DNA of 64,000 nucleotides from Candidatus Omnitrophota bacterium (GTDB lineage: Bacteria; Omnitrophota; Gorgyraeia; Zapsychrales; JANLHA01): NCBI GenBank assembly GCA_020632555.1, contig JACKFI010000001.1:133152-197151 (forward strand). The letters run 5' to 3'. The translations under genes and the position numbers were made by a program. The notes beneath the pieces are model-generated. The model saw nothing but the letters and a program-made list of their open reading frames with translations, was not told the DNA's origin and did no database searches. This document shows positions 2,291 through 63,051 of the stretch, piece by piece; within the stretch, counting starts at the first letter, position 1, and each line of letters begins with the position of its first letter.

Positions 2291-2297
2291 GGCCCCC

Positions 2298-11209: not shown

Positions 11210-12111
11210 CTCTCCAAATCTTTTTTGGTAACATCAAAAACAGTAAGCTCATGATCCTTGCGCATTCCCATACCCAACATTTGATTAAAATCACAATCAA
11301 ACAGTTTCCCGTCCCAACCAATACTTAAGGTATTGCGACACATCAGTCCGTCTAAAGTGCCGGGATTAAAACTATTAACCAATAATTCACAATAACTTTC
11401 CAACTGATTAAATGTTTTTAAGAATTTGGCATAACGCGTAATGGGCATATTGGTGATGGTGTAAAGTTTATTAAAAACAATCCCGAAATCATCAGAAAGC
11501 CGCTGCTTGTAATCCTGTTGCAATTTCTCTTGTGCCGGTGGCAAATGCGCTCCGACGGGATTATAAACCAAATTCAACACAAGCCCACTATTGCTCTGCC
11601 CATACCCCAAGCGATTCAACTCTTGCAAAGCTTCAATAGATTTACCAAACACTCCCCTGCCTCGCTGTTGATCAACATTGTCTTGGGTATAACACGGCAA
11701 AGACGCAATCACCTCAACCTGATGCTGTGCCAGAAAATCTCCCAAGTCCTGCATGCCTTGTTCAAAGAGAATCGTTAAATTGCAACGGTCAATAATATGT
11801 ATTGCGCGCTGATGGGCTTGGTGCACCAAATAACGAAAGTGAGGATTCATTTCCGGCGCTCCACCCGTCAAATCCAAAGTCTTAGGATGAAATTCATCCA
11901 TTAACCGGACAATAGCCTGTGCTGTTCTCAAATCCATATTTTCTTTGACTTTGCTCGGCCCAGCCTCGACGTGACAATGAGAACAGGTCAAATTGCACAA
12001 CTTGCCTACATTGACTTGCAAAATGTCAATGCCCGTCTTGCGCAAATCATATTGATGTTGTGTTAATTTTTCTTTAAAGGATTTCATGCATACTACCTGA
12101 TTTAATCTCAT
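11131..12111 (-). CDS. arsS: Radical SAM protein, ArsS-like (arsenosugar-biosynthesis rSAM / rSAM-Cys-rich family)
   Basis: 326 aa. CNLTCSHC radical-SAM cluster motif and a C-terminal Cys-rich tail (CFGCTAGTGSSCQG). Co-located with the two companion transferase genes. Confidence 0.75.
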   Translation of the reverse strand: MRLNQVVCMKSFKEKLTQHQYDLRKTGIDILQVNVGKLCNLTCSHCHVEAGPSKVKENMDLRTAQAIVRLMDEFHPKTLDLTGGAPEMNPHFRYLVHQAHQRAIHIIDRCNLTILFEQGMQDLGDFLAQHQVEVIASLPCYTQDNVDQQRGRGVFGKSIEALQELNRLGYGQSNSGLVLNLVYNPVGAHLPPAQEKLQQDYKQRLSDDFGIVFNKLYTITNMPITRYAKFLKTFNQLESYCELLVNSFNPGTLDGLMCRNTLSIGWDGKLFDCDFNQMLGMGMRKDHELTVFDVTKKDLESWQVLTANHCFGCTAGTGSSCQGTLQ

Positions 12112-12685
12112 CTAAATCTTCTAAAACAGACACTGATTGATATTTTAATTTTAATTTTGTAATTATGTGATATGTCTGAGCTAAAACGTCGCTGGTGCTC
12201 CAACTGATATTCACGAACACTTGCGGATGATTCGCCGATAAACCAATCAAATAATAGCCGCCATCTTTAGCCGGCCCGATCACCACATCAATTTCATTAA
12301 GCAAGGCAAAACCTTGTTGAGCTATTGCAGTGGTCAAATGCAAAGTATCGCTGCCATAAGCGGCTACCCTTTTATACCCCTGAGCAAACGCCCAAGCAAA
12401 AGCCGACGTTAAACGCTGCCCCAAATCATCACCCTGCTGCGGAAGATACTCATCCGCACTGGGCAGCCACTGTTGAATTTTGTCATGATCCTCTGGCGGA
12501 TCAAAGAAAACGATCAAGTCTGTCTGCCCACAGGCCCGCAGAATAGAATAATTCTGCCCAGCCAATTGCCGATAAACTCGCGCGGCCGCTTGATCACCCA
12601 ATGTTTTGGCTAAGCGAGTCTTGACGTGTCCGGCCGTCGGATATTTCACAAAAAACAAAATCGCCTGTTGATTACGGCACGTCAT
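12074..12685 (-). CDS. DUF2064 'transferase 1, rSAM/selenodomain-associated' (TIGR04282-like)
   Basis: 203 aa. FVKYPTAGHVKTRLA N-terminus typical of DUF2064 (nucleotide-diphospho-sugar transferase fold). Overlaps arsS by 38 nt (operon). Confidence 0.7.
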   Translation of the reverse strand: MTCRNQQAILFFVKYPTAGHVKTRLAKTLGDQAAARVYRQLAGQNYSILRACGQTDLIVFFDPPEDHDKIQQWLPSADEYLPQQGDDLGQRLTSAFAWAFAQGYKRVAAYGSDTLHLTTAIAQQGFALLNEIDVVIGPAKDGGYYLIGLSANHPQVFVNISWSTSDVLAQTYHIITKLKLKYQSVSVLEDLDEIKSGSMHEIL

Positions 12686-45234: not shown

Positions 45235-45870
45235 TTATTGCGAGTTTTCTGCTTTAACTTCGGGCTTTTCTAAAATTGTGACGCGTCGGCCTTTGACTTT
45301 CAACCGCTGATCAGCCATCAAAACCACAGCTTGTGGATAAATTCGATGCTCGACACGATGGATTTTGGCTTCCAAAGTTTCTAAGGTGTCCTCTTCATTG
45401 ATCTTAACAGTATCCTGTAAAATAATCGGGCCATTGTCCATTTTTTCATTGACAAAATGCACAGTCACGCCGGTCTGCTTGACACCGTAAGTAAACGCGT
45501 CTTTAATGCCGTGAGCGCCTTTAAATGATGGCAGCAATGACGGGTGGACGTTAATAATTTTATTGGGGTACTCTTTGATAAAATACGGGGTCAATAAGCG
45601 CATATAACCGGCTAAAACAAGAAAATCAATTTTATGCTCTTTGAGCGCGATCACAATATCACGGTCAACACTTTGTCGATTGGTGTAATTGTCAGGAGAG
45701 AAGACCAGAGTTTTGATGCCAGCTTTTTCAGCACGCTTGAGACCAAAGGCTTTATCAGTGCTGGAAATGACCAAAGACAATTCAGCTTTGATCTCACCGT
45801 TTGCGACGCTATCAATAATCGCTTGCAAATTGCTGCCATTGCCTGAAATAAAAACCGCAAACTTTTGCAT
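45235..45870 (-). CDS. purN: Phosphoribosylglycinamide formyltransferase
   Basis: 211 aa. Motifs FISGNGSNLQAI and HPSLLP. Confidence 0.88.
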   Translation of the reverse strand: MQKFAVFISGNGSNLQAIIDSVANGEIKAELSLVISSTDKAFGLKRAEKAGIKTLVFSPDNYTNRQSVDRDIVIALKEHKIDFLVLAGYMRLLTPYFIKEYPNKIINVHPSLLPSFKGAHGIKDAFTYGVKQTGVTVHFVNEKMDNGPIILQDTVKINEEDTLETLEAKIHRVEHRIYPQAVVLMADQRLKVKGRRVTILEKPEVKAENSQ

Positions 45871-45974
45871 ATCAATCTCTTGTCCTTTTTGCTGACTTAC
45901 TTAAAGTACGTCAATTATGCCCTGTTTTGGTCGAAAAATCAAGGTAAGCGGATAAAAGAACTTAAAAAGAACAA

Positions 45975-47996
45975 TTAAGGACGATGTTGAAGTTTTTTCT
46001 CGAGGGTTTGCAATTGCAGTTCAATTTTTTCAAAGGTCTGATCTTGTAAGCGCATTTGATTGTTCTGCTCTTTGAGCGCGCCGGTTAGAACCGCGGTAAT
46101 GCCCATCGGATCAACACTTCTGCGACCTTCTTCAGCGACGAACTCCGGAACATCTTCGGCAATAAACCCGACGTGATGTTCCTCATGATTGACTTTATAA
46201 TTATAAGTCACAGGCTGCAATTCTTTGACCACTTCTAAAGCTTGGCGGGTATCTAATGGATAGATATGCTCTTTATACTCGCGGCTGGATAAAGTCATCC
46301 ACGTTCCAACATCGTCCAAATGCGCATTATTACCAAAATGCAAAGGGTAGGCCGGATCAGGTCGTCCAACACCAATTCGACCATTATTTTTAACCATAAA
46401 AATATCTCCAGCGGTTGCGGAGTTCTGTGAAGTCACAGCAAAAAAATCGTCCCCATTATTAATTTTTATATCTAAAATCGCACTGGGCGCAGTGTTACGA
46501 ATACCGAATTTGGGATTATTGGTACTGGGCGCAATAATAAACGCATCCGAGGCTGAAATCGAAACAGCTGATATGGAATACCCCCACACAAAAGATCGAT
46601 TTGCGCTATTAATCAAATTCATATAACGTCCTCCTGCCCATGAATAATCGCCCAAAACCGTATTATTTCGACCATTGCTAATGACTGAATAATTTCCTGA
46701 AACATCATTATTCACACCACCAACAACTATTGAAGAACGTCCAGCCCTATTATTAGCCCCTCCCCAAATAACCGCATAATCCCCAGATGTCACATTTCCT
46801 GTTCCACCCATAATCGCCGACCAAGAGCCATTAACTGTATTGCTCCTGCCTCCATCAATCACTGAATACAAACCATTCGCGGTATTGGTCAATCCTCCCG
46901 CAATAAATGAATAACTCGCCAACGCATTATTTGATTGCCCCCCGCCGACCACAGCATAAGGACCAGCTGAATTTTGACAACCGCCACTGACCACAGAATA
47001 AATACCGGGATCGTGATGCAATGTGCCGCCGGAAATAGTAAAATAATCGGCCGCAACAGTTTTGGTCGGATCCGTTAAACAATTTGGAAAAACCCATTGC
47101 GCATTATTACTACTGCCGCCGGTGATCGTCGCACCGACTCCTGCCGCAACATTACAAGAACCACTAAAAACAACATTATAATCATTTCGTGTTTGGCTTG
47201 ATTCTCCACCGACAACAGAAGCTCTCCCCTGCACATCACTTCGCTCACCCCAATTGACAGCATACTGACTGAAAACATCTGTTTTTAAACCGCCCAAATT
47301 AGCTGAATAATCTCCGGAAGCTTTTGAATACCGTCCAAATGCAACTGCAGCTAACCCACTGGCCTTAATATTGTCTTTACCTAAAGCAATTGAATAATCG
47401 CCAATATTGCCATCATTCCAAGCATCGGAAAAATCTTCTTCCCCCCAAAAATGCGTTAAATGTCCAACACGAAAAGCCGCTTTACGAGGATACCAAATCA
47501 TTTGCACCGCCCCTTCAAAACTAGACTCAGCAATAGCAGGCAAGTCAGGCAAAAGTTGGCCACTGCCCAATTGCCCCATCGCTAAAATACCGCCATCATT
47601 TTCTAAAGTCAGCTTGAATTCCGGAACAGTCGTGCCAATACCCACAAAAATATTGGGATTGGTGACTATCGCAGTTGGAAAAACATCATTGCCCGACTGG
47701 GTCCAAGAGCTTTCCAACAATGTCCATTGTCCATTTCCACTGCCATCATCAAAACAATAATGCAATTGATCTGTCCCCTGCTTAACAGACAATGTCCCAA
47801 GCGCACAAGGGGTGGATAATACTTGCGGCAATAAAGTCACTCGATCATAAGCGCCTTGCGGTGCCGGATAATATGTCGTTAATGTAAGACTCTCAGCCAA
47901 CGCAGACAAAGAACTCAATACAATCAAAGCGACGCTGATCGCCCCAATTTGAATTGAGCGTAAAAAACCATCGTCTCTGTGCTGAGCCTTTTGCAT
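45975..47996 (-). CDS. Secreted phage-tail-fibre-like protein, paralog 1 (N-terminal YYPAP module, ASGxYS/GG beta-repeats, C-terminal S74-type intramolecular chaperone domain)
   Basis: Signal peptide. N-terminal TYYPAPQGAYDRVTLLPQ…YC…VGIGT…KLTL…WYPRKAAFR. Over 15 tandem (A)SGxYSxxxGGxxN repeats. C-terminal SSREYKEHIYPLD…VTYNYK…HVGFIAEDVPEFV…MGITAVL plus a coiled-coil tail. Confidence 0.7.
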   Translation of the reverse strand: MQKAQHRDDGFLRSIQIGAISVALIVLSSLSALAESLTLTTYYPAPQGAYDRVTLLPQVLSTPCALGTLSVKQGTDQLHYCFDDGSGNGQWTLLESSWTQSGNDVFPTAIVTNPNIFVGIGTTVPEFKLTLENDGGILAMGQLGSGQLLPDLPAIAESSFEGAVQMIWYPRKAAFRVGHLTHFWGEEDFSDAWNDGNIGDYSIALGKDNIKASGLAAVAFGRYSKASGDYSANLGGLKTDVFSQYAVNWGERSDVQGRASVVGGESSQTRNDYNVVFSGSCNVAAGVGATITGGSSNNAQWVFPNCLTDPTKTVAADYFTISGGTLHHDPGIYSVVSGGCQNSAGPYAVVGGGQSNNALASYSFIAGGLTNTANGLYSVIDGGRSNTVNGSWSAIMGGTGNVTSGDYAVIWGGANNRAGRSSIVVGGVNNDVSGNYSVISNGRNNTVLGDYSWAGGRYMNLINSANRSFVWGYSISAVSISASDAFIIAPSTNNPKFGIRNTAPSAILDIKINNGDDFFAVTSQNSATAGDIFMVKNNGRIGVGRPDPAYPLHFGNNAHLDDVGTWMTLSSREYKEHIYPLDTRQALEVVKELQPVTYNYKVNHEEHHVGFIAEDVPEFVAEEGRRSVDPMGITAVLTGALKEQNNQMRLQDQTFEKIELQLQTLEKKLQHRP

Positions 47997-48011
47997 ATTT
48001 TTATCCCTGTC

Positions 48012-50006
48012 TTATTTCTCTAACCTTGTCCGCAATACTTTAATTCTTTCTTCAATCAGCTGAATCTTGTGTTCCCGTTGTTCAATTTCAGATTGTTGAT
48101 TTTGAACAACCTTGGTTAAAACGGCAACAATATCCATTGTGCTCAAAGTTTTGCGGTCTTTAACCGCAACTAAACTCGGAACATCTTCGGCAATAAATCC
48201 AATATTCGTATGATCAGGATCATTTTTATATTCAAATGTAACCGGATTTAATTGCTCAAAAGCTTGCTGGGCATCTGCTCCTGTCAGCGGAATAATATTT
48301 TCTTTAAGCTTGCGGCTAGATCCATTTTCCCAGGATCCTCCAGAACTCACATAAGCCCCATTGCCAAACTCCATTGCATAAGTAGGATTTGTTGGCATTA
48401 TTTTTTGGCTGCCAATATAACCATTTCTTTTCACAATAAAAACATCCCCAGAAGTTATTTTTCCCAAAGCCAAGAAATTATCAGCAGTTCCGTTGGCATT
48501 AACTTCTAAAACACCAACCGGATTAGTATCCCTGATCCCAACTCTGGGATTCCAAACAACTCCGCCAATCGTTCCCGGCGCAATAATAAATGCATCCGGC
48601 ACAACAATAGAAACCGCTGTATCAGAATATCCCCACGCAAAAGTTCGCTGCGCGGTACTTGTCAAATTCATAAAACGTCCCCCAGCCCAAGAATAATCGC
48701 CATCTACTATATTGTCCGTCCCACCCATGATCGTAGAATACCCGCCGTAAGCTCTGTTTCGCTCACCCCCCGCGATCACAGAATAATTATAGCTAGCATC
48801 ATTTTGCCACCCACCACCTATAATCTGGCCGAAACCTCCGCGAATCACATTCGTGCGTCCACTAGAAATAAACGAATACCTATTACCAGTTAAAATGGAA
48901 TTGCTGTCCCCACCGGAAATTCGCACATATTCACCAGCTGGACTAAACACAGAAACGTATTCACCGGTTTTATTCGCCAAGCCACCGCCAATGCTTGAAT
49001 AAGGTCCCTCAACAATATTGCCCTCACCCCCCAAAACAATAGAATAATCAGATCTGACTTTATTGTCCTTACCCCCACCAATCAGCGAATACCCCGTCGG
49101 AACACCAAAATCAGTAAAATCAATTAAATTATTAAAACCACCATTGATGTTTGAATATGGAATTGTGACACGATTTTGTGCCCCGCCGGCAACAACACTA
49201 TAAATCGCAGTGGCCTGATTATCTAAACCCCCAAGAATCGCAGAAAAATCTCCGGAAACCACATTGTTTTCTCCACCCCAAAGTGCCGCATATCGACCAC
49301 TGGCCATATTGTCCTTGCCACCGCCAACCGCTGAAAAATCCGCACTGGCCGTGTTCCTAAATCCACTGCCAACCACAGAATATAATGCACTGGCAATATT
49401 TCCATCGCCGCCGCCGATAGCTGAATAATGTCCACTGGCCCTTGTATTCTTTCCAAAAGCCGTGGAATAATTGCCGATATTCCCATTGTCCCATTGAGCC
49501 CCATCAACATAACCGGCGCGAATCGCGGCTTTACGCGGATACCAAATAAACCGGCTGCCCGCTCCTAAATTCGGCAAGGTCGCGCCACTGCCAAATGTCC
49601 CCTTAGCCATAATCCCGCCATCTTTTATTAAAGTCAGTTTTGAATCCGGCGTGTTGGTCCCAATCCCAACACGCAATAAAGGATTGCTCAAAGTATCTTT
49701 CAAATAAATATCATCATTCGTTTGCATCCAAACATCACTAAGCGCTTCCCACGCACCATTACCGCTGCCATCATTGTGACAATACTGAAGACTCCCCAAA
49801 GAATTCACATACAAAGATCCAATCGGACAAGCCGCAGTCAAGTCTGCGCGTGGCAGTAAACGAAAAGTGTCATATTCCCCTACCAATGAAGGATAATAAA
49901 TATCCATTTTCATTTCTGGGCTCGCCTGCGCAACGGGGACAAACACAAATCCCGTACAAATGAGGAGAAGAATTAGGAAAAGTTTTTTTGAATTATTTAT
50001 CATCAT
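48012..50006 (-). CDS. Secreted phage-tail-fibre-like protein, paralog 2
   Basis: Same architecture: DIYYPSLVGEYDTFRLLPR N-terminal module, beta-repeats, C-terminal SSRKLKENIIPL…NIGFIAEDVPSLV…MDIVAVL. 15-bp gap to paralog 1. Confidence 0.7.
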   Translation of the reverse strand: MMINNSKKLFLILLLICTGFVFVPVAQASPEMKMDIYYPSLVGEYDTFRLLPRADLTAACPIGSLYVNSLGSLQYCHNDGSGNGAWEALSDVWMQTNDDIYLKDTLSNPLLRVGIGTNTPDSKLTLIKDGGIMAKGTFGSGATLPNLGAGSRFIWYPRKAAIRAGYVDGAQWDNGNIGNYSTAFGKNTRASGHYSAIGGGDGNIASALYSVVGSGFRNTASADFSAVGGGKDNMASGRYAALWGGENNVVSGDFSAILGGLDNQATAIYSVVAGGAQNRVTIPYSNINGGFNNLIDFTDFGVPTGYSLIGGGKDNKVRSDYSIVLGGEGNIVEGPYSSIGGGLANKTGEYVSVFSPAGEYVRISGGDSNSILTGNRYSFISSGRTNVIRGGFGQIIGGGWQNDASYNYSVIAGGERNRAYGGYSTIMGGTDNIVDGDYSWAGGRFMNLTSTAQRTFAWGYSDTAVSIVVPDAFIIAPGTIGGVVWNPRVGIRDTNPVGVLEVNANGTADNFLALGKITSGDVFIVKRNGYIGSQKIMPTNPTYAMEFGNGAYVSSGGSWENGSSRKLKENIIPLTGADAQQAFEQLNPVTFEYKNDPDHTNIGFIAEDVPSLVAVKDRKTLSTMDIVAVLTKVVQNQQSEIEQREHKIQLIEERIKVLRTRLEK

Positions 50007-50008
50007 AT

Positions 50009-51943
50009 TTACTCAAAGTGCCTGTTTAATTGCTCTAGCTCATTTAATAAATCTTCACTTTTTTGCTTCTGTTGCTCAATTTTCTCTTGTTGATAAGCAA
50101 CAACCTTGGTTAAAACCGCAGCAATATCCATTGGGGCTAATCCTTGGCGTTGTTTTTGAACAACCAAAGCAGGAACATCTTCGGCAATAAAACCAACATA
50201 TTCTTCATCTTTTTGTAATTTATAATTAAACCGTACCGGATTTAAACCACGCAATGTTTCTAAAGCTTGATCCAGGTCCAAAGCCGTAATATTTTCTTTA
50301 TATTCACGACTTGATGAAGGCATGAATTTACCACTGGCATCAACATAGGCACCGTTACCAAAATCCATAATGTATTGCGGATTACTCTTATTAACCCCAA
50401 TGCAACCATTGCAACTGCCGCCTTTCTTGATGGTAAAAATATCACCCACAACAGAACTAGAGTTGCTGGTAAAGTTTAAATAATCATCCGCAGAATTATT
50501 GCCATTAATTTCCAACCCAGCGGCAGGAGTTATATCGCGAATACCCATTCTGCCAGAATAAATGATAAAAGCATTGGCTGTCGAAATATCTGCAGGCGCT
50601 GCAGAATATCCCCACAAAAAAGTATTATTAGCCCCAGTGGTCAATCTCATATTTCGACCAGCAACAAATGAATATGGGCCAACAATAGAATTATCAGCCC
50701 CACCGGCAATCATCGAACAATCAGAAGCCGCCTCAACCCTATTGAGCTTACCCCCCATAACCGTTGCATAAGGACTCAAAACGCCATTGTCTTCTCCTGC
50801 GCCAATCACAGAATAATCCTGACTCACAGTATTTCTATGCCCACCACCGACGACCGAATAAAGACCCTGAACAAGATTATCACTGCCGCCGGCAATAACC
50901 GAATACTGTCCAGAAATAACATTTGACTTCCCACCGGAATTAACAGAATATGAAGCGCTGGACGAATTTAAATGCCCCCCCGCAATAACAGTCCGATCCG
51001 TTACATTGACAAAGGTGTTGGCCCGACCGCCGCTAATGACCCCATAACTGCTAACCTGACTTGGCGAAAAAGAATTATCCCCACCACCTGAAATTATTTG
51101 ATAATCATAATAAGTCTTATTATTGTTCCCACCCGCAATAATTCTAAAACGAGAATAATTATCCGACCCGCGCGGGTGAGAATTATCTCTCCCTCCGCCG
51201 ATATCAGACCACACGTCCCCCGCACTATTATTAAAACCGGCTAGTCCTCCCTCCCAACAATCATCACGGCAAACATTGTTTTCTCCACCAAGAATAATTC
51301 CGCCCTTAGCTGCATTCGATTTACCTCCTAAAATCATTCCCCATCTGGCATCGTTATTCTCGCCACCTAAAACAAACATCCCTCTGCTGCCATATCCCAT
51401 AACTACACTGCCTGGATCAATATTCCCAACATCCCATTCATTCCCGGCAGCATACCCGGAACGAAAAGCTTTTTTCGATGGAATCCACATCAAGCGCGTA
51501 CCGGCTCCCGCAGTAACTAAGGCTGTCCCACTGGCCCAACTGGGCGTAAACCATCGCGATAAAATTCCACCATCACCGGCGAGCGTTAACTTAAACTGCG
51601 GCATCATTGTTCCAATCCCAACTTTTTTAGCTGCTGGATTCGTCGTATCGGCAAGATGGAGATTGTCTCCTGTCAATACCCACGTACCAGAGACAAGCAC
51701 GTATTTAGAAAACGGAGTGTCCTTAACACAATAATAAAGTCTGCCTAGGTCTGTCGCATTGGCATACAATGTACCAACAGGACAATTTGTATTTGGAGTA
51801 ATAGCTGGCTGAGGATTTAATCTGAGTTTGCTGTAATTTCCCGTTGGAGCAGGATAGTAGGACGTCATTTCCAAACCGCTGCAAGCTGCACAGGCGATAA
51901 ACGCGAACGAAAAAAACAAATATGCTGAAAATATTCTTCGCAT
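50009..51943 (-). CDS. Secreted phage-tail-fibre-like protein, paralog 3
   Basis: Same architecture: TSYYPAPTGNYSKLRLNPQ module, repeats, C-terminal SSREYKENITALD…YVGFIAEDVPALV…MDIAAVL. 2-bp gap to paralog 2 (operon). Confidence 0.7.
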   Translation of the reverse strand: MRRIFSAYLFFSFAFIACAACSGLEMTSYYPAPTGNYSKLRLNPQPAITPNTNCPVGTLYANATDLGRLYYCVKDTPFSKYVLVSGTWVLTGDNLHLADTTNPAAKKVGIGTMMPQFKLTLAGDGGILSRWFTPSWASGTALVTAGAGTRLMWIPSKKAFRSGYAAGNEWDVGNIDPGSVVMGYGSRGMFVLGGENNDARWGMILGGKSNAAKGGIILGGENNVCRDDCWEGGLAGFNNSAGDVWSDIGGGRDNSHPRGSDNYSRFRIIAGGNNNKTYYDYQIISGGGDNSFSPSQVSSYGVISGGRANTFVNVTDRTVIAGGHLNSSSASYSVNSGGKSNVISGQYSVIAGGSDNLVQGLYSVVGGGHRNTVSQDYSVIGAGEDNGVLSPYATVMGGKLNRVEAASDCSMIAGGADNSIVGPYSFVAGRNMRLTTGANNTFLWGYSAAPADISTANAFIIYSGRMGIRDITPAAGLEINGNNSADDYLNFTSNSSSVVGDIFTIKKGGSCNGCIGVNKSNPQYIMDFGNGAYVDASGKFMPSSSREYKENITALDLDQALETLRGLNPVRFNYKLQKDEEYVGFIAEDVPALVVQKQRQGLAPMDIAAVLTKVVAYQQEKIEQQKQKSEDLLNELEQLNRHFE

Positions 51944-52033
51944 AAGCGGTTTTGAAAAAGACCAACTGATATAAAAAAAACACTTTTTTATACTATAGGA
52001 GAAGTATACCTGAAAAAATGACTAGTCACAATG

Positions 52034-53317
52034 TCAAGAATGCATCTTTTCAGTCAAAAAGGCAAGATCGCCGCCGTGGCGATAACGAATCATACCGGCA
52101 ATGCCTACAATGGTAAAAATCGCGCCCACCGAAACCAAAATCCAAAACGCGTCAATACGTTCAGCTAGCCATGAACTGATCAACATGGAGGTCAAAAACG
52201 CAAAATGAATAACGATTTCCAACGCGCTAAAAACTTTTCCTCGCATCGCCTCATCACTGGCCACATGAACAATCGTATTAGACGCGATAAAAATCGGACC
52301 AATCACAATACCCAATAAAAACGCCAGAATCCCAGCCAAAAAAACACTTGGGTATTGCTGGACGGTCGTCGCGAAAACAATAACCATCGCTCCGCCAGCC
52401 ATCAAGCTCAAAAAAATCGTACGCGACCACAAAACTTTTTTGCCCCAACGCCCATAAAGCAAAGCGCCAATAAAGAGCCCCACACCTAAGCAAACAGCCA
52501 AAACACCCAAGTCCCGCGTGACCGTGTTAAAAGCTTTTTGAATAAAAACGATAATGACTACATAAATAGCACCAGCTGCGGACAAAAGAATAAAAAACAT
52601 ATTCATCACGAAACGAATCTGACGCTGGCTAAACAAATACTGCAAGCCTTCTTTGATTTCTGAAAAAAAAGATTTCTCAATCGCAAGAAATTCCTTGCCC
52701 TTATCAATGATTTGTTTTTTACTCAATTCGACATGAAACTTAGCACCCATTGATCCAATTAATAACGCTGAAAAAAAGTATGTTGCTCCATCACCAAAAA
52801 AACCTGCTTTCACGCCAACTTTATCAACCAAAAAACCACCTAATGCACAACCCAAGACAAAAGCCAACATACCTGTGGTCGTCAAAAGCGAATTGGCCAT
52901 CAAAATATTTTCGGCGGGAACAAGTTCAGGAACAATAGACATTTTAGCGGGCACATAAAAACGGCTAAAACAAAAAATCAGAAAAACAATAATATAAATT
53001 TCGATCATGGATTGTTTATACAAAAAGAAAAAAGGAATGATCAAAACCAGAAGTCCACGAACCAAATCACATACAAATAATGTCTTGCGTTTGTCCCAAC
53101 GATCCACATAAACGCCGGCAATAGGCCCGACGATAAAAACGGGAATAATCGTAAACGACAACAGTTTGGCCAAGCTGTAAGCTGAACCAGGTTCACGCTG
53201 GGCAATCAAACCAATCAAGGCCATTTGATTTAAGCGATCTCCAAACTGCGAAATCAGCTGTGCCCACCACAGACGCATAAACTGCTTATTTTTTTTATCA
53301 AAAATAAAACGCAACAT
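52034..53317 (-). CDS. MFS-family transporter
   Basis: 427 aa, ~12 TM, MFS motif-A-like GVYVDRWDKRKT. Confidence 0.75.
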   Translation of the reverse strand: MLRFIFDKKNKQFMRLWWAQLISQFGDRLNQMALIGLIAQREPGSAYSLAKLLSFTIIPVFIVGPIAGVYVDRWDKRKTLFVCDLVRGLLVLIIPFFFLYKQSMIEIYIIVFLIFCFSRFYVPAKMSIVPELVPAENILMANSLLTTTGMLAFVLGCALGGFLVDKVGVKAGFFGDGATYFFSALLIGSMGAKFHVELSKKQIIDKGKEFLAIEKSFFSEIKEGLQYLFSQRQIRFVMNMFFILLSAAGAIYVVIIVFIQKAFNTVTRDLGVLAVCLGVGLFIGALLYGRWGKKVLWSRTIFLSLMAGGAMVIVFATTVQQYPSVFLAGILAFLLGIVIGPIFIASNTIVHVASDEAMRGKVFSALEIVIHFAFLTSMLISSWLAERIDAFWILVSVGAIFTIVGIAGMIRYRHGGDLAFLTEKMHS

Positions 53318-53320
53318 AAT

Positions 53321-55126
53321 TTAAAGCTTCTCAATACGCCGGGCCATATCGGCCAAATGCATAGTCGCCAGACGATCCAATTCATCAGGACCGGACTTGA
53401 GCAACAAAACACGCTCATAAAACGCGATCGCTTTTTCCCGTTGCCCCAGCATTTGATACGTTGAAGCGAGGTTAAATAAAGCTTCTTTCAAATTTCCATC
53501 TAATGAAATTGCTTTTTCGTAATACTCAATGGCCCGCCGGGGATCAGATAATTTCGAATACAAAATCCCCAAACTATGGTAACCGCGCGCATTATCGGGT
53601 TTTTCTCTCATCAAACGTTCATAATGTGAAACCAAAAACAATTCCGTAGACTTGATATTATCGTCAAGCAAGTTCTTCAAATCGCCCGGATCGGTAATCT
53701 TATCATATTCGCGCAAACCTTCCCAAAACTTACCTTGATCACATAAGGATTTACCCAAACCAATGCGCGCCCGGATATTAAAAGGTTCAACATCCAAAAC
53801 TTTTCGAAAATTATGTTCAGCCAGATCAAACCGATTGCGCTTAGCATAAGATAAAGCCAAAGAATTGCGAATACGCGTATTGGTCGGATTAATGGACAAA
53901 GTGCGCTCGAACATTGCGATTTCATTGCTGGAATAAATGTTGTATTGAATCGTTAAAAGAATCAAAAATAAAGAAAACCCTATCACACCAGAGCGAATCA
54001 TGAAAGGAGAAATCAATTTACGGCGCGCACAGGCTTTTTTGTAATGCTCAAAGAGCACCATGGCTAAAACAAAAATACCAATGCTGGGCACATATAAAAA
54101 ATGCTCCGCTGTTGAAATATAGCCCGGCTGGACTCCCACTGTTGTAATAATCTGAGAAACAGGTAAAAGTTCAATAAAAAACCAGCTCACACAAAAAGCT
54201 TGCAACCCTGTGATTTTCTCGCGCTTAATCCAAGCCATCGCCATTAAGGCCAAGAAAAATAGCACAGTCAGAATCACCTGAGTGTCCATGAAACTAATAA
54301 AAATCGGCTGAGAACGATCAAAATAAAGATCAACCGGAAAAATGAAAAGGCGCAAATCGATGATCACACTTTTTAAAAATGTCAAAAAACCCAAAACCAT
54401 TTCACTCGCCGATCGCCACGGAAAAGTTCTCGTAATGCCTAAAATATGGCGTATCCCCAAATAAACTCCGGCGACAGCAGCGTAAGGAACAAGGCCAACG
54501 AAAAGTTTTTTAAAATGAAAGCTTTGTTTTTCCTTAATAAAATAAGAATAACTTAAAAACACCAATGGAAGAATACCCGCGGATTCTTTGCACAGCAGCG
54601 CCAAAGCAAACGCGATCAGTGAAAAATACGAATAATATTTCCGGCGGTCGGAATAAATAAAAAAATAAAATGACGCCAGCCCATAAAAAGCGCACAAAAG
54701 AATAGAACGCCCGGGAATATTAGACACCGCCTCCCATTGAATCGGATGCAAAGCAAACAAAAATGCCGCTCCCAAGGCCATGGCTCGTCGATCTGTCAAA
54801 GCAAAAACAATCGCAAAAACCCAGAAAGCGTTGAGAATATGAATAAGAATATTGTCTACATAATACGGAACGGGATCGAGTTTAAAAAAATGGTATTCCT
54901 TCATAAAACTCAGCGTAACCAATGGCCGATAATAAGCCTCCCCACTAAAAAAAGCGCTGGTCATCACTTTGGGAATATTACGAAAACTGCGAACATCTTC
55001 ATTGCGGACAATTGAATAATCATCATCCAGCGTCTTAAAAGCGCCATTAATGCTAAACGAATAGACAAAACATGTCATAAACGCCAACAAAATCAACCCA
55101 ACAAGTGTTTTACGTTTTTCAATCAT
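53321..55126 (-). CDS. TMTC-like membrane glycosyltransferase (GT-C/PMT_2-like polytopic N-domain + C-terminal TPR repeats), paralog A
   Basis: 601 aa. ~10 N-terminal TMs with a DUF1736-like region. C-terminal 5-6 TPR units (…ALSYAKRNRFDLAEHNFRKVLDVEP…). Confidence 0.65.
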   Translation of the reverse strand: MIEKRKTLVGLILLAFMTCFVYSFSINGAFKTLDDDYSIVRNEDVRSFRNIPKVMTSAFFSGEAYYRPLVTLSFMKEYHFFKLDPVPYYVDNILIHILNAFWVFAIVFALTDRRAMALGAAFLFALHPIQWEAVSNIPGRSILLCAFYGLASFYFFIYSDRRKYYSYFSLIAFALALLCKESAGILPLVFLSYSYFIKEKQSFHFKKLFVGLVPYAAVAGVYLGIRHILGITRTFPWRSASEMVLGFLTFLKSVIIDLRLFIFPVDLYFDRSQPIFISFMDTQVILTVLFFLALMAMAWIKREKITGLQAFCVSWFFIELLPVSQIITTVGVQPGYISTAEHFLYVPSIGIFVLAMVLFEHYKKACARRKLISPFMIRSGVIGFSLFLILLTIQYNIYSSNEIAMFERTLSINPTNTRIRNSLALSYAKRNRFDLAEHNFRKVLDVEPFNIRARIGLGKSLCDQGKFWEGLREYDKITDPGDLKNLLDDNIKSTELFLVSHYERLMREKPDNARGYHSLGILYSKLSDPRRAIEYYEKAISLDGNLKEALFNLASTYQMLGQREKAIAFYERVLLLKSGPDELDRLATMHLADMARRIEKL

Positions 55127-56927
55127 TTTTTTTCTCTGCCTGGTTAAGGTAATTTTCTACCGCTTTTAAATTCATATCCCCATCAAACTTTTCTTGAGCT
55201 TTTGCCAATACCGTCCGCGCTTGCGGCAAATCACCGGCCTCAATGTTAATATGTATCACAAAAACATAAGCCAGTACCGATTGAGAATCAACTGCCATGG
55301 CCTGCAAAGCACAATCTTTTGCCGACACATAATCTTTTTTAATCAAATAATTCCTCGAAAGCTCCAAATACAATCCCGAAAAACCGGGAGCCAACTCAAT
55401 GGCTTTCTTCAAATAACCAATCGCGGCGTCGGGAGTAGCAGCCGCTTTACTTAGAAGATGATAAGTCATAAATTTTTCTTTGTCACTGGAAATAAACGGA
55501 TTATTCATCGCGACTTTAAGATGTTGTGTAAGATATTTAACCGCCTGCGGCGAATGACCTGCCAAATAACTATCCAAGCCTAAAATCCAATACGGGCGAG
55601 AACTATCCGGATACCGGCGAATCATTTCGCGGCAAGCCACAAAATTATTTCTAAAGAAATCATTATTGGCAATGGTTAAAATAATCAAAAACCCTGTCCA
55701 AACTCCTGGCAATATCAATCTCATGTTCAACGTAATATGTCGTCGAGTAAACCACTGCGCAAGATGGTCTATACCAATCGCAAATAACAAAAAAAATCCA
55801 ATCGACGGCAAATACAAGAAACGAAATGCTAAAGGATTAAGCAAAGGAAAGATCCCAGAAGCCGGGAAATAATTGACAAAAAACCACACAAACCCAAAAG
55901 TAATAATTTTATCGCGTCGAAAAAAATTAACGGCTAAAATTATGGACAATAAGCTAACAACCAACGGCACCATCAATTCCCAAATCGGCATTGGAAAAAT
56001 TGGCGGGGCATACAAGGGAGGAAGAACAGAAACTTTAAACGGCAAAACCAGCGCCACGCAGTACTGTAAGAAAAGTTTAAGCATCAAGACAATTTGCGCT
56101 AAACCTTTTAAAGCATAAGGCGAAGGCTGTAAATAAAATACATTAGGAATTAAAATGAAGTACACACATAAATAAAAGATCGTGATTCCAGCCAAAACCG
56201 CGTAAAGCCCCTTCTTTTGACCAAGAATCTGTCGACCCTTTTGCGCTGAAAGAAAGAACCAGTCGACAATAAAAATAATAAATGGAAAAGTTACTGCTGT
56301 TTCTTTTGAAAACAAAGCCAAAAAATATGACACTCCGACAAGACCAAACCAGAGGCCTTTTCTTTTAGCCTCACTAAAGCGCGCATAAGCTAAAACCGCG
56401 CACAAATAAAACATCGTCATCAAAATATCCGAACGATACCCGCTGGCATTGACAACTTCCGACTGAATTGGATGGACTGCGAAAAAACTTGCCGCCCAAA
56501 AAGCTATTTTTTTATTGCCGGAAATCCGCAGGATAAAATAAAAAACCAAAATGCAGGTCAAAAAATGAAGAAATATATTACTAAAATGATGCCCCGTCGG
56601 ATTGTTCTTCCATAAAGCGTAATCTATAAAAAAGGTCGCAGCGCTAACCGGACGATAAGAAACGCACCCGGAAAAAGATTGAGTCTTTTGTGAAGCATCA
56701 TAAGTCGACGGATTCATGACCAAATCTTGTGAGAAAATCTTTGGGAAATTGGTCAGACTTTTATAAAATTCATTGCCGCTAAAAAGAGCCTTGTCGTCGC
56801 CAACAAAGTCATTTTGCAAACAATTGTGAAAAGCGGCTGCAACAAAAAGCGCTAAAAGAAAAATAATTAATCGATTGGTGAAGGGAATTTTTGTGAAGGA
56901 AAAATTTTTCAAGGCACGAAGAATCAA
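55119..56927 (-). CDS. TMTC-like membrane glycosyltransferase (GT-C + TPR), paralog B
   Basis: 602 aa. Same architecture as paralog A. Overlaps it by 8 nt (operon). Confidence 0.65.
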   Translation of the reverse strand: MILRALKNFSFTKIPFTNRLIIFLLALFVAAAFHNCLQNDFVGDDKALFSGNEFYKSLTNFPKIFSQDLVMNPSTYDASQKTQSFSGCVSYRPVSAATFFIDYALWKNNPTGHHFSNIFLHFLTCILVFYFILRISGNKKIAFWAASFFAVHPIQSEVVNASGYRSDILMTMFYLCAVLAYARFSEAKRKGLWFGLVGVSYFLALFSKETAVTFPFIIFIVDWFFLSAQKGRQILGQKKGLYAVLAGITIFYLCVYFILIPNVFYLQPSPYALKGLAQIVLMLKLFLQYCVALVLPFKVSVLPPLYAPPIFPMPIWELMVPLVVSLLSIILAVNFFRRDKIITFGFVWFFVNYFPASGIFPLLNPLAFRFLYLPSIGFFLLFAIGIDHLAQWFTRRHITLNMRLILPGVWTGFLIILTIANNDFFRNNFVACREMIRRYPDSSRPYWILGLDSYLAGHSPQAVKYLTQHLKVAMNNPFISSDKEKFMTYHLLSKAAATPDAAIGYLKKAIELAPGFSGLYLELSRNYLIKKDYVSAKDCALQAMAVDSQSVLAYVFVIHINIEAGDLPQARTVLAKAQEKFDGDMNLKAVENYLNQAEKKND

Positions 56928-56951: not shown

Positions 56952-57024
56952 AGCTGGCGGTCAGGGTTGAACTGACGGCCTGCGCATTACGAATGCGCTG
57001 CTCTACCGACTGAGCTACGCCAGC
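56952..57024 (-). tRNA. tRNA-Thr (anticodon CGU)
   Basis: Minus strand reads GCTGGCGTAGCTCAGTCGGTAGAGCAGCGCATTCGTAATGCGCAGGCCGTCAGTTCAACCCTGACCGCCAGCT. Anticodon loop TTCGTAA. No encoded CCA. Confidence 0.85.
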
Positions 57025-57490
57025 GAATTACCTTAAAATAATCAAAACAAACCTTAAGAAAAATTCGCCAGTACTGTTTTCCTTATATCTTTTTACAGAA
57101 AAAACAGTGCGCCAGCAAACTTCCACTAAACTTACAAAATTTACCCTTAGAACAGTTTGCCAGTACTGCCTTCTACTTTTACTATCTTGAGAAGGCATGT
57201 ACGCCAGCGAATTACCTTAAAATCATCAAAACAACCTTAAGAAAAATTTGCCAGTACTGTTTTCCTTATATCTTTTTACAGAAAAAACAGTGCGCCAGCA
57301 AACTTCCACTAAACTTACAAAATTTACCCTTAGAACAGTTTGCCAGTACTGCCTTCTACTTTTACTATCTTGAGAAGGCATGTACGCCAGCGAATTACCT
57401 TAAAATCATCAAAACAAACCTTAAGAAAAATTTACCAGTACTGTTTTCCTTATATCTTTTTACAGAAAAAACAGTGCGCCAGCATTTACA
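57017..57490. repeat. ~183-bp tandem repeat x 2.6; each unit begins with the first 8-10 nt of tRNA-Thr (ACGCCAGCG)
   Basis: Unit starts at 57017, 57201 and 57384, >95% identical. Each unit contains the internal inverted repeat ACTGTTTT…AAAACAGT and two GCCAGTACTG boxes. Confidence 0.7.
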
Positions 57491-57503: not shown

Positions 57504-57650
57504 GGGAAACCGGGACATCACCCACCGAACAACATTGCACCAAACTAAAAAAAAAGAATGGTGCCGAGACTAAGGGATTGTTGTGGGAAACCGGGATTTC
57601 ACCCACCGAACAACAAAGCACCAAACTAAAAAAAAGAATGGTGCCGAGAC
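57504..57650. repeat. ~81-bp tandem duplication; each copy ends with the last 12 nt of tRNA-Phe (TGGTGCCGAGAC, i.e. ...GTCTCGGCACCA)
   Basis: 57504-57570 vs 57585-57650. The second copy's end is the genuine tRNA 3' end. Confidence 0.65.
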
Positions 57651-57714
57651 CCGGAATTGAACCGGGGACGCACGGCTTTTCAGGCCGTCGCTCTACCGAC
57701 TGAGCTATCTCGGC
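57639..57714 (-). tRNA. tRNA-Phe (anticodon GAA), CCA encoded
   Basis: Minus strand reads GCCGAGATAGCTCAGTCGGTAGAGCGACGGCCTGAAAAGCCGTGCGTCCCCGGTTCAATTCCGGGTCTCGGCACCA. Close to E. coli tRNA-Phe. Confidence 0.88.
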
Positions 57715-59376: not shown

Positions 59377-62300
59377 TTACAACTTGGGCGAAAGAACAAT
59401 AACGCCAGATTTTACAGTACTGGTATCCTGATCTTGCGGATAAGCCGCAACAACCGTATCTCCACTTAAAGCAATACTCTGCCCAAAATTGAGAATACCG
59501 GCTCCTGCTAAATTATACGCCCAGGCAAAAGAATTATTGGCCTGACGTTTAAAAACAATCACTGAATCCGTTGTATGTATCGAACCTAACGAGAAGGTTT
59601 TAGGATGCATCGCAACGGCGACAGTATTGTCTTTGGCCGTAAGGCTGATAATCGCACTGCTCGAATGCCACGGCAAGCTTAAGCGAGAATACGATGTATT
59701 CCACGTGCTAACCGGCGCTCCATACGGAGCATTGCGCATTTCATTAAAAATAAAAACATTACTCAAAAGAGTAATATCAGGAACAGCACTCAACGCAACA
59801 ATAAGCTGATGACCAACAACCTTGGTTGCCGTCAAAACAGCCTCAGCATTCTGCGGCGTTAATAACCCTATCTCTTGACCAAAATTAGCTATATCGTTTT
59901 CATACGTTTTTTCTAATGTCCAGAGACCTTGTCCTTTGTAACGATAGATAAAGATTTTACTCTTTTCGGTTTCCGAAGCTTTGGGCGCGCCAACTGCAAT
60001 AATCCCATCACCGACAGCTACCGATTGAGCAAATTGAACTTTACCAGCTTCCACTCCAGACAACTTCAATGTGGCCGCATAAGCCCATGCACCATTGTTA
60101 CGACTGATCACATACACAACTTTAGCCGACGGTAAAGAAACCGCCAAGCTGTCTGACGAAAGAGCCAGTTTCATATTACTAACTAAAGCTGGATCTAAAT
60201 TATCAATTTTACTAAGATCCAATTTATTGCCAGCTTGAACCCAAGCATTATTAACTTTGGAGAAAAAATAAAGACTGCTCTGCGCTTGCACAACCAACGC
60301 ATCTTTATTAGCCGCCAAAGTCTTGCCAAACTGATCACCATCTGCCAAACCTACAGGCGCGATAATCGCGGGCACAGGCACAGACTGTGTTGCATCAACA
60401 GGCATGCTCTTATATTGATAAACAACACCTTTGCCATTAACACTAGGGGCTCCGACGAATAATTCATTGCTCTCTTGCAAAACAGCAACGCTTTGCGCAA
60501 AACCAATGTTAAACTGCGGCGTTGCCAAACGGCCTGCTGACAGATTATCCAAATTGCTATAATACTCACCAACCGTGATTTTATCAGCTGGCTTTTTTAT
60601 AGCAGCAATAAATGAATCCATCACAAATTTTGCTTTCGCAGGATCTTTTAATGCCCAAATATTTTGAAAATACTTATTCATTGCATACTTTGTGTTCCAA
60701 AGCATTTTACTATCATAATAGTTACCAACGTTTGTTTTATCTGCCGGATTAAGAACTACGGCTATAATGGATTCCATCACAAACTTCTCTTTGGCAGGAT
60801 CCTTCGCCTGCGCCAAAATCGAAACATAACTATTGATTGCCGCTTGAGCTTTAAGCACAGCCGTTTGATCATAATACTGCCCAATTGTGGTTTTATCCGC
60901 AGGATTTAAAACTGTGGCCAACAATGATGTCATCACAAACTTCGCCTTAGCTGGATCTTCGTTCCCAGCCGATAAAACTGTGAAATAATTGTCAATCGCG
61001 ACTTTCGCTTTTGTCACCGCCACTTGATCCAAATACTGACCAATTGCGGTTTTGTCGGCAGGATTTAAAACTGTGGCCAACAATGATGTCATCACAAACT
61101 TCGCCTTAGCTGGATCTTCGTTCCCAGCCGATAAAACTGTGAAATAATTGTCAATCGCGGCTTTCGCTTTTGTCACCGCCACTTGATCCAAATACTGACC
61201 AATTGCGGTTTTGTCGGCAGGATTTAAAACTGTGGCCAACAATGATGTCATCACAAACTTCGCCTTAGCTGGATCTTCGTTCCCAGCCGATAAAACTGTG
61301 AAATAATTGTCAATCGCGGCTTTCGCTTTTGTCACCGCCACTTGATCCAAATACTGACCAATTGCGGTTTTGTCGGCAGGATTTAAAACTGTGGCCAACA
61401 ATGATGTCATCACAAACTTCGCCTTAGCTGGATCTTCGTTCCCAGCCGATAAAACTGTGAAATAATTGTCAATCGCGGCTTTCGCCTTTGTCACCGCCAC
61501 TTGATCCAAATACTGACCAATCGCGGTTTTGTCGGCGGGATTTAAAACCGTCGCAATCACTCTATCCATAACCAATTTTGCATTAACTGGATTTTGTACC
61601 GCAGCCAATAAAACCTGAAAATAATTATCAATTGTAATTTTAGAATTTGTTACCGCAGATTGATTGTAATAATCTCCAACAATCGCTTTTTCTGCAGGAT
61701 TCAAAACTGCAGCAATAGCCGAATCCATCGCCAGTTTTGCTTGCGCTGGATTTTTGGTAACAATCAACAATGTCGCAAAATAATCATCAATCGCAGCTTT
61801 AGCTTTATTAACAGCCATCTGAGACATTCCAATGCTGTAATAATTTGCAACAATGGTTTTGTCAGCAGCATTAAGAACCGTCGCCATTACAGCCTCCATA
61901 ACAGCTTTTGCCGTTGCTGGATTTTGCCCAGCGGCCAAAGCAGAAAAATAATTATCAATCGCAACTTTGGCCTTCACAATAGCTGTTTGGCCGTAATAAT
62001 TATTAACAATAAGTCTATCCGATGGATTAAGAACCGCCGCCATAGCGGCTTCCATGACAGTTTTCGCTATTGCTGGATTTTGCGCAGCCATCAAAGCAGA
62101 AAAATAATTATCAACCGCAGCTTTGGCCTTCACAATAGCCGTTTGGCCGTAATAATTATTAACAATAAGTTTATCTGATGGATTAAGAACCGCCGCCATA
62201 GCGGCTTCCATGACAGTTTTCGCTATTGCTGGATTTTGCGCAGCCATTAAAGCAGCAAAATACTTATCAATCGCCGCTTTGGCCTTCACAATAGCCGTTT

Positions 62301-63051
62301 GGCCGTAATAATTATTAACAATAAGTCTATCTGATGGATTAAGAACCGCCGCCATAGCGGCTTCCATGACAGTTTTCGCTATTGCTGGATTTTGCGCAGC
62401 CATCAAAGCAGCAAAATAATTATCAACCGCCGCTTTGGCCTTCACAATAGCTGTTTGGCCGTAATAATTACTAACAATAAGTTTATCTGATGAATTAAGA
62501 ACCGCCGCTATAGCGGCTTCCATGACAGTTTTCGCTATTGCTGGATTTTGCGCAGCCATCAAAGCAGCAAAATACTTATCAATCGCAGCTTTGGCCTTCA
62601 CAATAGCTGTTTGGCCGTAATAATTACTAACAATAAGTTTATCTGATGGATTAAGAACCGCCGCCATAGCGGCTTCCATGACAGTTTTCGCTATTGCTGG
62701 ATTTTGCGCAGCCATCAAAGCAGCAAAATAATTATCAACCGCCGCTTTGGCCTGAATAATAGCTGTTTGACCATAATAATTATTCACGATAGATCTATCT
62801 GCCGTGTTAACTACGGCAGCCATGGCCTGATCCATTGCAACCTTAGCTGCTGATGGATTCTGTCCACTCAACAAGACGCTAAAGTAATTGTCAATAGCCA
62901 CTTTAGCAGCTTCGACAGAAGTCAACTGCACTGCTGTCCCCACACTTGAACTTTGAGCATACACCATACTGGGCAATGCCAGCATGCCAAAACCAGCGCA
63001 CGCTCCCAACAATACAACAACAACCTTCTTAACCAAACTCTTTCGATTCAT
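59377..63051 (-). CDS. Large secreted repeat protein: ~20 tandem 48-aa alpha-helical repeats + C-terminal FG-GAP (integrin-alpha-like beta-propeller) repeats
   Basis: Signal peptide. Repeat unit NYYGQTAIVKAKAAVDNYFAALMAAQNPAIAKTVMEAAMAAVLNPSDKLIV. C-terminal QFGKTLAA, FAQSVAVGDG, FGQEIGL, FGQSIALSGD (FG-GAP-like). Confidence 0.7.
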   Translation of the reverse strand: MNRKSLVKKVVVVLLGACAGFGMLALPSMVYAQSSSVGTAVQLTSVEAAKVAIDNYFSVLLSGQNPSAAKVAMDQAMAAVVNTADRSIVNNYYGQTAIIQAKAAVDNYFAALMAAQNPAIAKTVMEAAMAAVLNPSDKLIVSNYYGQTAIVKAKAAIDKYFAALMAAQNPAIAKTVMEAAIAAVLNSSDKLIVSNYYGQTAIVKAKAAVDNYFAALMAAQNPAIAKTVMEAAMAAVLNPSDRLIVNNYYGQTAIVKAKAAIDKYFAALMAAQNPAIAKTVMEAAMAAVLNPSDKLIVNNYYGQTAIVKAKAAVDNYFSALMAAQNPAIAKTVMEAAMAAVLNPSDRLIVNNYYGQTAIVKAKVAIDNYFSALAAGQNPATAKAVMEAVMATVLNAADKTIVANYYSIGMSQMAVNKAKAAIDDYFATLLIVTKNPAQAKLAMDSAIAAVLNPAEKAIVGDYYNQSAVTNSKITIDNYFQVLLAAVQNPVNAKLVMDRVIATVLNPADKTAIGQYLDQVAVTKAKAAIDNYFTVLSAGNEDPAKAKFVMTSLLATVLNPADKTAIGQYLDQVAVTKAKAAIDNYFTVLSAGNEDPAKAKFVMTSLLATVLNPADKTAIGQYLDQVAVTKAKAAIDNYFTVLSAGNEDPAKAKFVMTSLLATVLNPADKTAIGQYLDQVAVTKAKVAIDNYFTVLSAGNEDPAKAKFVMTSLLATVLNPADKTTIGQYYDQTAVLKAQAAINSYVSILAQAKDPAKEKFVMESIIAVVLNPADKTNVGNYYDSKMLWNTKYAMNKYFQNIWALKDPAKAKFVMDSFIAAIKKPADKITVGEYYSNLDNLSAGRLATPQFNIGFAQSVAVLQESNELFVGAPSVNGKGVVYQYKSMPVDATQSVPVPAIIAPVGLADGDQFGKTLAANKDALVVQAQSSLYFFSKVNNAWVQAGNKLDLSKIDNLDPALVSNMKLALSSDSLAVSLPSAKVVYVISRNNGAWAYAATLKLSGVEAGKVQFAQSVAVGDGIIAVGAPKASETEKSKIFIYRYKGQGLWTLEKTYENDIANFGQEIGLLTPQNAEAVLTATKVVGHQLIVALSAVPDITLLSNVFIFNEMRNAPYGAPVSTWNTSYSRLSLPWHSSSAIISLTAKDNTVAVAMHPKTFSLGSIHTTDSVIVFKRQANNSFAWAYNLAGAGILNFGQSIALSGDTVVAAYPQDQDTSTVKSGVIVLSPKL
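60600..62940. repeat. Intragenic 144-bp tandem DNA repeats (two subfamilies; several copies 100% identical)
   Basis: e.g. identical 144-bp units through 60990-61500 and a second subfamily through ~61930-62760. Confidence 0.7.

Follow-up and report, generated by a model that had tools for sequence, protein, structure and literature searches.

Do two tandem membrane glycosyltransferase genes that stand beside three genes for secreted fiber proteins form a system dedicated to glycosylating those fibers? The question is raised by a 64,000-nt stretch of a Candidatus Omnitrophota bacterium genome (GenBank assembly GCA_020632555.1, contig JACKFI010000001.1, forward-strand positions 133,152 to 197,151; hereafter the window), for which an initial annotation had proposed that the pair O-glycosylates the fiber proteins or another envelope substrate in the periplasm. 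We find that the three fiber genes are a recent insertion specific to this genome, between a major facilitator superfamily (MFS) permease gene and purN. We consider it reasonably probable that the two enzymes, GT1 and GT2, are housekeeping, polyprenyl-phosphate-sugar-dependent periplasmic glycosyltransferases resembling the TMTC proteins, with a general envelope role and no specificity for fibers.

All genes between 45.2 and 63 kb of the window lie on the minus strand. Along the direction of transcription they encode a 1224-aa repeat protein, a HAD phosphatase, a 133-aa protein (p133), tRNA-Phe and, after a 614-nt spacer filled with repeats, tRNA-Thr, GT1, GT2, the MFS permease, the fiber proteins FIB1 to FIB3, and PurN. 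The GT1 and GT2 genes share 8 nt, and 3 nt separate GT2 from the MFS gene. The central features are the following.

56952-57024, minus strand: tRNA-Thr(CGT), found with ARAGORN and Rfam; the immediate upstream neighbor of GT1, a position kept in relatives
55119-56927, minus strand: GT1, 602-aa TMTC-like GT-C glycosyltransferase, TTG start
56793-56798, minus strand: GT1 codons D44-D45, first-loop acidic motif (D44 invariant and D45 variable in family alignments)
53321-55126, minus strand: GT2, 601-aa TMTC-like GT-C glycosyltransferase
55022-55027, minus strand: GT2 codons D34-D35, DD motif of the first periplasmic loop (invariant in family alignments)
52034-53317, minus strand: MFS permease, 427 aa, DHA3/LplT-like (Pfam MFS_1/MFS_3, NCBIfam, synteny)
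45871-52033, minus strand: 6.16-kb (6,163-nt) insertion holding the three fiber genes (nucleotide alignment with locus L086)
50009-51943, minus strand: FIB1 (Peptidase_S74 domain; PHROG tail-fiber families)
48012-50006, minus strand: FIB2 (same evidence)
45975-47996, minus strand: FIB3 (same evidence)
45235-45870, minus strand: purN (tblastn synteny; Formyl_trans_N in relatives)

Several features of the window invite the idea that the pair and the MFS permease form a dedicated system for O-glycosylating the adjacent fiber proteins, modeled on the Pgf cluster of Streptococcus mutans. The genes are contiguous on one strand, the three fiber proteins (about 650 aa each, with a C-terminal Peptidase_S74 domain) are exported and rich in Gly and Ser, and adhesin-linked clusters have a precedent in Pgf, in which GT-C genes lie beside the adhesins that they modify (PMC11092751). 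The initial annotation described this contiguity correctly but placed the pair downstream of the fiber genes, whereas in the sense of transcription it lies 5' of them.

The arrangement is not conserved in relatives. We used all window proteins as tblastn queries against 80 loci that encode GT2 relatives, nearly all from Omnitrophota and with flanks of up to 10 kb per side, and none of the 80 contained a match to any of the three fiber proteins. The closest database relative, L086 (amino acid identities of 92% for GT2, 96% for MFS, and 98% for PurN; about 86% nucleotide identity in GT2), aligns at the nucleotide level in two blocks: its positions 1-4970 correspond to window positions 57006-52034, a stretch bounded by the tRNA-Thr gene and the MFS stop codon, and its positions 5070-5749 correspond to 45870-45192, beginning at the purN start. 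The spacer between MFS and purN is 99 nt in L086 and 6,163 nt in the window, and because the MFS gene of L086 is followed directly by purN, window positions 45871-52033 are an insertion. No direct repeats of 8 nt or more were found flanking it.

Fiber homologs in other Omnitrophota always occur as ordered triplets of the FIB1, FIB2, and FIB3 types, single or as two in tandem. In the three loci examined (L083, 8068-13925; L084, 8000-20024; L085, 1785-14095) the triplets adjoin acpP/SMC on one side and fabV on the other, and no homolog of GT1, GT2, or the MFS permease lies near them. Two relatives carry both gene sets on separate contigs, namely, metagenome-assembled genome (MAG) HK-STAS-OMNI-2 (glycosyltransferase locus L008, fiber locus L083) and assembly Kpj58rc (L002 and L084, respectively). 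Within the window itself, a promoter-like site (candidate 52003-52031) separates the MFS gene from FIB1. The initial annotation had named the occurrence of the pair away from fiber genes in relatives as evidence that would speak against its hypothesis, and this is what the related loci show; contiguity, the sole genomic support for fiber O-glycosylation, is lost, and glycosylation of the fibers by this pair is left without genomic evidence. The main practical value of this result is negative: what looks like a glycosyltransferase-plus-fiber operon arose by chance through a recent 6-kb insertion, and on its strength neither should the fibers be annotated as glycoproteins nor the pair as fiber specific.

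Some further observations concern the fibers themselves. The FIB1, FIB2, and FIB3 types are 33 to 37% identical among themselves, and each protein combines a signal peptide and an N-terminal YYPxP motif with Gly-rich repeats that are YadA/ice-binding-like and with a Peptidase_S74 chaperone domain; the sequences allow the possibility that a fiber is built as a FIB1/FIB2/FIB3 heterotrimer. The fiber proteins are just 42 to 58% identical to their best homologs, versus 68 to 98% for the flanking backbone genes in the same relatives, and the GC content of the block is slightly higher (0.43 to 0.44 versus 0.40). Possible explanations are acquisition from a more distantly related lineage and fast evolution of the block. 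A 781-aa tetratricopeptide repeat (TPR) protein near the triplets of relatives was considered as a possible relative of GT1 and GT2 and rejected, as it has no similarity to either. A literature search combining Omnitrophota with "tail fiber" found no paper.

What, then, are GT1 and GT2? As the initial annotation had stated, they are paralogs of about 600 aa with a GT-C N-terminal domain and C-terminal TPRs; they share 29% identity across 422 membrane-domain residues (E value [E], 5e-31). Both comprise a polytopic membrane domain of 11 transmembrane (TM) segments with a GT-C fold, followed by an extracytoplasmic TPR domain of about 5 to 6 hairpins, which begins at about residue 428 in GT1 and spans residues 400-601 in GT2 (N-domain, 1-399). 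This architecture is supported by AlphaFold2 secondary structure, positive-inside loop analysis, and Pfam TPR matches, the last being strong in GT2 and limited to a marginal TPR_19 match in GT1. The AlphaFold models, built on the family alignments, reached a predicted local distance difference test (pLDDT) score of 90.1 and a predicted template-modeling (pTM) score of 0.82 for GT2 and 89.9 and 0.88 for GT1; the predicted topology has a cytoplasmic N terminus, with the long loops 1, 4, and 5 and the TPR domain in the periplasm. When PDB sequences were searched with the full-length family profile, only TPR proteins were recovered, and a comparison of folds was needed because the N-domain profile found no PDB sequence. 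Its two columns of values, which carry no headings, read as follows.

ALG12: 19.5, 16.6
STT3B: 19.2, 16.6
AglB: 17.8, 15.2
Pmt4: 17.7, 15.8
Pmt2: 16.9, 15.5
ArnT: 16.0, 16.0

Conservation of the active site was assessed in two alignments per family (27 and 26 sequences for GT2, 16 and 30 for GT1). In both GT2 alignments D34, D35, R67, P68, N92, H96, H127, P128, R140, K180, E181, and Y345 are invariant, and Y65, E132, and H342 are invariant or nearly so. The GT1 family has invariant D44, R92, P93, N117, H121, H152, P153, E157, R165, K208, E209, R369, and Y372, with Y91 and D167 invariant or nearly so and D45 variable. The first extracytoplasmic loop of both proteins thus holds a conserved acidic residue (D34/D35 in GT2, D44 in GT1), at the place where the initial annotation had proposed to check for conservation of the GT-C catalytic Asp/Glu.

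We compared these positions with the seven motifs described for TMTC proteins (PMC7801869). Of the loop-1 DD motif (M1), GT2 has the full, invariant form and GT1 retains the first Asp alone, the one common to all GT-C enzymes (PMC7801869). The second loop-1 motif (M2, SHKSYRP) is conserved as SYRP in GT1 and YYRP in GT2, and its His and Lys are absent from both. The RxD motif of loop 2 (M3) is present in GT1, where R165 is invariant and S166-D167 at least nearly so. The loop-3 motif KE(T/Q)xxT (M4) is matched exactly by K208-E209-T-A-V-T in GT1 and appears as K180-E181-S in GT2, with the Lys-Glu pair invariant in both families, and the ERxxY motif before TM10 (M7) reads F-R369-F-L-Y372 in GT1, where the Arg and Tyr are invariant. 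Both proteins retain most of the donor-phosphate-binding set and also the single residue that every GT-C enzyme needs. Neither looks like a dead enzyme.

GT2 homologs come almost entirely from Omnitrophota MAGs, where they are annotated just as "tetratricopeptide repeat protein"; when 26 GT2-type N-domains were scanned singly, 11 matched PMT_2 (weak to moderate, best 5e-8) and 5 matched TMTC_DUF1736 at the loop-4 position (best 2e-4, all under threshold). Distant GT1 homologs of other phyla (P0317, P0319, P0326, and P0344) exceed the Pfam gathering threshold for TMTC_DUF1736, and three of the four also exceed those for PMT and/or PMT_2. The N-domains of both window proteins align with P0326 (GT1, 32% identity over 370 aa, E 2e-37; GT2, 34% over 392 aa, E 5e-37), and bacterial homologs at E of about 1e-37 that carry TMTC_DUF1736 link them to TMTC. 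A search of 1.84 billion cluster representatives with the GT2 N-domain yielded 53,091 relatives at E of ≤1e-3 and 17,805 at E of ≤1e-10. The combination of GT-C and TPR domains is already known and common, because full-length TMTC homologs containing both have been noted in many poorly characterized prokaryotes (PMC7801869).

GT1 and GT2 are further members of this large bacterial TMTC-like branch: bacterial full-length homologs are numerous, and to our knowledge none has been characterized. The titles and abstracts of the literature on bacterial TMTC homologs yielded no characterized one, and one Omnitrophota genomics preprint, searched by term, did not mention the GT1/GT2 family. Like the window proteins, animal TMTC1-4 have an 11-TM GT-C domain followed by TPRs on the side of the active site. 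Unlike TMTC, the window proteins have only those few TPR hairpins, and the cadherin substrates do not exist here. They differ from the PMT family (GT39; yeast Pmt1/2/4 and actinobacterial Pmt) in having a C-terminal TPR domain and DD in place of DE, and in lacking the MIR beta-trefoil of loop 4: Pfam found no MIR domain in GT1 or GT2, and their loop 4 has just ~52 residues.

The chromosomal setting suggests that the role of these enzymes is a general one. Across the 80 loci the recurrent order is HAD, p133, tRNA-Phe, tRNA-Thr, GT1 where present, GT2, MFS, and purN. The MFS gene follows GT2 in about 66 of the 72 loci with enough downstream sequence (62 counted automatically, plus L047, L066, and L073, which have small coordinate overlaps, and L071, in which MFS lies behind extra paralogs), with a median gap of ~85 nt in relatives. 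purN follows MFS in 48 of 54 loci and stands directly after GT2 in four Omnitrophota loci. A GT1 ortholog precedes GT2 in only 18 of 68 loci, most Omnitrophota loci having GT2 without GT1. Clustering of all open reading frames (ORFs) extends the syntenic backbone to an LpxL-like acyltransferase, HAD, p133, the glycosyltransferase genes, MFS, purN, a 340-aa gene, FtsH, enolase, and DivIC. The core of tRNA-Thr, optional GT1, GT2, MFS, and purN is syntenic in Omnitrophota chromosomes and for that reason suggests a general envelope function. We thus record a well-defined, near-universal Omnitrophota subfamily with a paralog, conserved motifs, and a fixed chromosomal position, a clean target for work on how the envelope is glycosylated in this phylum, which is uncultivated and in part predatory.

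Two observations concern the family at other loci. At least three tandem GT-C/TPR paralogs are present in some Omnitrophota (L015, 1448-3184; L020, 1798-3456; L027, 6178-7863; L071, 10001-14906), showing that the family expands locally at this position. A deltaproteobacterial MAG (L089, 3718-7187) has a TMTC_DUF1736-positive GT-C/TPR gene that borders a secretin-containing cluster and is followed by a 312-aa family-2 glycosyltransferase, which is of the size of a polyprenyl-phosphate-sugar synthase and is a candidate lipid-linked sugar synthase partner.

We interpret GT1 and GT2 as anciently duplicated inner-membrane GT-C enzymes whose active site and TPR arm are on the periplasmic side. A polyprenyl-phosphate-sugar would be synthesized at the cytoplasmic side and then flipped to the periplasmic face, where each enzyme would take a single sugar from it, by analogy with TMTC, PMT, ArnT, and GtrB/PgtC2. 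The invariant first-loop Asp would be the catalytic or acceptor-binding residue, and the loop-3 Lys-Glu pair together with the Arg of GT1 or the His of GT2 that precedes TM10 would hold the phosphate and metal. The TPR arm would recruit exported proteins, whose Ser/Thr hydroxyls would receive the sugar. PMTs have been shown to use such a mechanism, which has also been proposed for TMTCs. The model adopted here is that of the streptococcal GtrB/PgtC2 and PgfS/PgfM1 systems, in which a GT-C enzyme transfers a monosaccharide from an undecaprenyl-phosphate-sugar to Ser/Thr-rich extracytoplasmic protein regions (PMC11092751). PgtC2 is a YfhO-family GT-C protein that, unlike GT1 and GT2, has no TPR domain, and the Pgf genes cluster with their adhesin substrates, a linkage not conserved between the glycosyltransferase and fiber genes here. 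The lipid-linked donor, a protein as acceptor, and the TPR arm's role are analogies with these systems, as are any particular donor sugar, acceptor set, or role for the MFS permease.

Several results weigh against this interpretation. Neither protein reaches a Pfam glycosyltransferase threshold: GT2 scores 21.6 bits against PMT_2 (cutoff, 26.1) and E 0.65 against TMTC_DUF1736 (PF08409; residues 236-294), while GT1 has no match to PMT or PMT_2, and the N-domain-only profile found nothing in the PDB at E of ≤10. Unlike in TMTC, the RxD motif of GT2 has R140 and a gap at the Asp position, and before TM10 GT2 reads E341-H342-F-L-Y345, with His replacing the phosphate-binding Arg; GT1 has neither a conserved second Asp nor anything like the DW motif that TMTCs have in loop 4. 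No polyprenyl-phosphate-sugar synthase or GtrA/SMR-type flippase was found in the conserved neighborhood of the 80 loci, which holds housekeeping genes instead. The donor and acceptor of bacterial TMTC-like proteins in general are assigned by analogy, and ArnT, which matches the structures equally well, acts on a lipid rather than on a protein.

A lipid or glycan acceptor, as for ArnT, is a serious alternative, if in our judgment an unlikely one. The enzymes would then act on a nonprotein envelope component (lipid A, lipopolysaccharide core, peptidoglycan, or another glycan), as do ArnT and the three-component GT-C systems, and the TPR domain would just dock them to envelope machinery. ArnT itself (GT83, undecaprenyl-phosphate-4-amino-4-deoxy-L-arabinose [L-Ara4N]:lipid A transferase) lacks a TPR domain and is encoded in the arn operon alongside ArnC and ArnE/F, partners not found in the conserved neighborhood of the 80 loci. 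The motif set and TPR architecture of the window proteins are closer to those of the protein-acting TMTCs than to ArnT, and their homologs carry TMTC_DUF1736 and PMT domains. The LpxL-like neighbor carries no weight, because the syntenic block holds unrelated housekeeping genes too.

An obligate GT1-GT2 heterodimer of the Pmt1-Pmt2 kind, in which the active-site residues of the two proteins would complement each other and a cotranscribed MFS flippase would supply the lipid-linked sugar, seems to us distinctly improbable. It would account for the start and stop codons that overlap by 4 to 8 nt in the window and relatives, for the complementary motif losses (GT1 keeps RxD and the Arg, GT2 the full DD), and for the recurrence after GT2 of an MFS gene whose product resembles the LplT-type lipid-flipping domain (best matches, DHA3 group TIGR00900, 1e-58, and the LplT-type domain of PRK08633, 1.7e-30; no curated NCBIfam cutoff was reached). 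Comparing the permease with the PDB by phmmer gave nothing useful. The low frequency of GT1 upstream of GT2 stands against an obligate pair, and GT2 must work alone, because most Omnitrophota loci have it without GT1. A further point against the heterodimer is that the His at the ERxxY position is also found in P0326, a bona fide PMT/DUF1736 protein. As for the flippase, purN beside MFS is conserved equally well, the whole region being a syntenic backbone, and TMTC-like genes outside the phylum (L081, L082, and L087 to L089) have no MFS neighbor. Since the GT2-MFS adjacency is conserved no better than that of MFS and purN, it is weak evidence for a shared function. We find it very doubtful that GT2 and the DHA3/LplT-like permease are a phylum-wide two-gene module in which MFS flips a polyprenyl-phosphate-monosaccharide to a TMTC-like O-glycosyltransferase, with GT1 serving as a second subunit or providing a second specificity in some lineages. 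Were it true, the TMTC pathway and lipid-linked monosaccharide flipping could be studied in Omnitrophota as a tractable prokaryotic model, and MFS would be a long-sought type of flippase. We give equally little credence to the fiber-dedicated system, which must contend with the lack of fiber genes in all 80 related loci, the 99-nt spacer of L086, the acpP/SMC-fabV setting of the triplets, and the promoter-like site before FIB1.

The region upstream of the pair has features of its own, and two elements mentioned above belong here.

57639-57714, minus strand: tRNA-Phe
59377-63051, minus strand: 1224-aa secreted repeat protein

The start of GT1 is uncertain (56912-56927): the TTG that opens the ORF lies 25 nt past tRNA-Thr, an identical database protein (P0241) begins at a TTG five codons further in, and no ATG precedes residue 70. 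Directly 5' of tRNA-Thr, a 183-bp tandem repeat (57016-57484; 2.6 copies, 98% match) has a 92-bp subperiod, and on the minus strand its subunits open with GCTGGCG, which resembles the tRNA-Thr acceptor stem, followed by a hairpin; an Rfam scan of this region recognized just the two true tRNAs. An 81-bp duplication (two copies; 57504-57668) of the tRNA-Phe 3' end resembles an att-site remnant. The spacer between the two tRNAs is 17 to 22 nt in some relatives and 4 to 6 kb in others, with long examples in L002 (3781-8101, with ParE/Fic/HTH genes), L015 (1311-7540, with a third glycosyltransferase paralog), and L012 (2082-7995). The site just upstream of GT1 looks like an integration hot spot.

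The 1224-aa protein contains many tandem copies of an Ala-rich repeat, about 60 aa long by eye (AKAAIDNYF...NPADK...YYGQTAIVK), with a weak FG-GAP match in its C-terminal region and weak similarity to the Leptospira LIC_10421 family. Elsewhere in the window, positions 314-7635 hold a complete alpha-glucan (GlgE) pathway block comprising a GlgB-like branching enzyme, a TreS-Mak fusion, and a GlgE maltosyltransferase, and positions 10463-12685 encode a DUF2064 protein, a radical-SAM DUF3641 protein, and a 248-aa family-2 glycosyltransferase, a conserved trio with no relation to GT1 and GT2.

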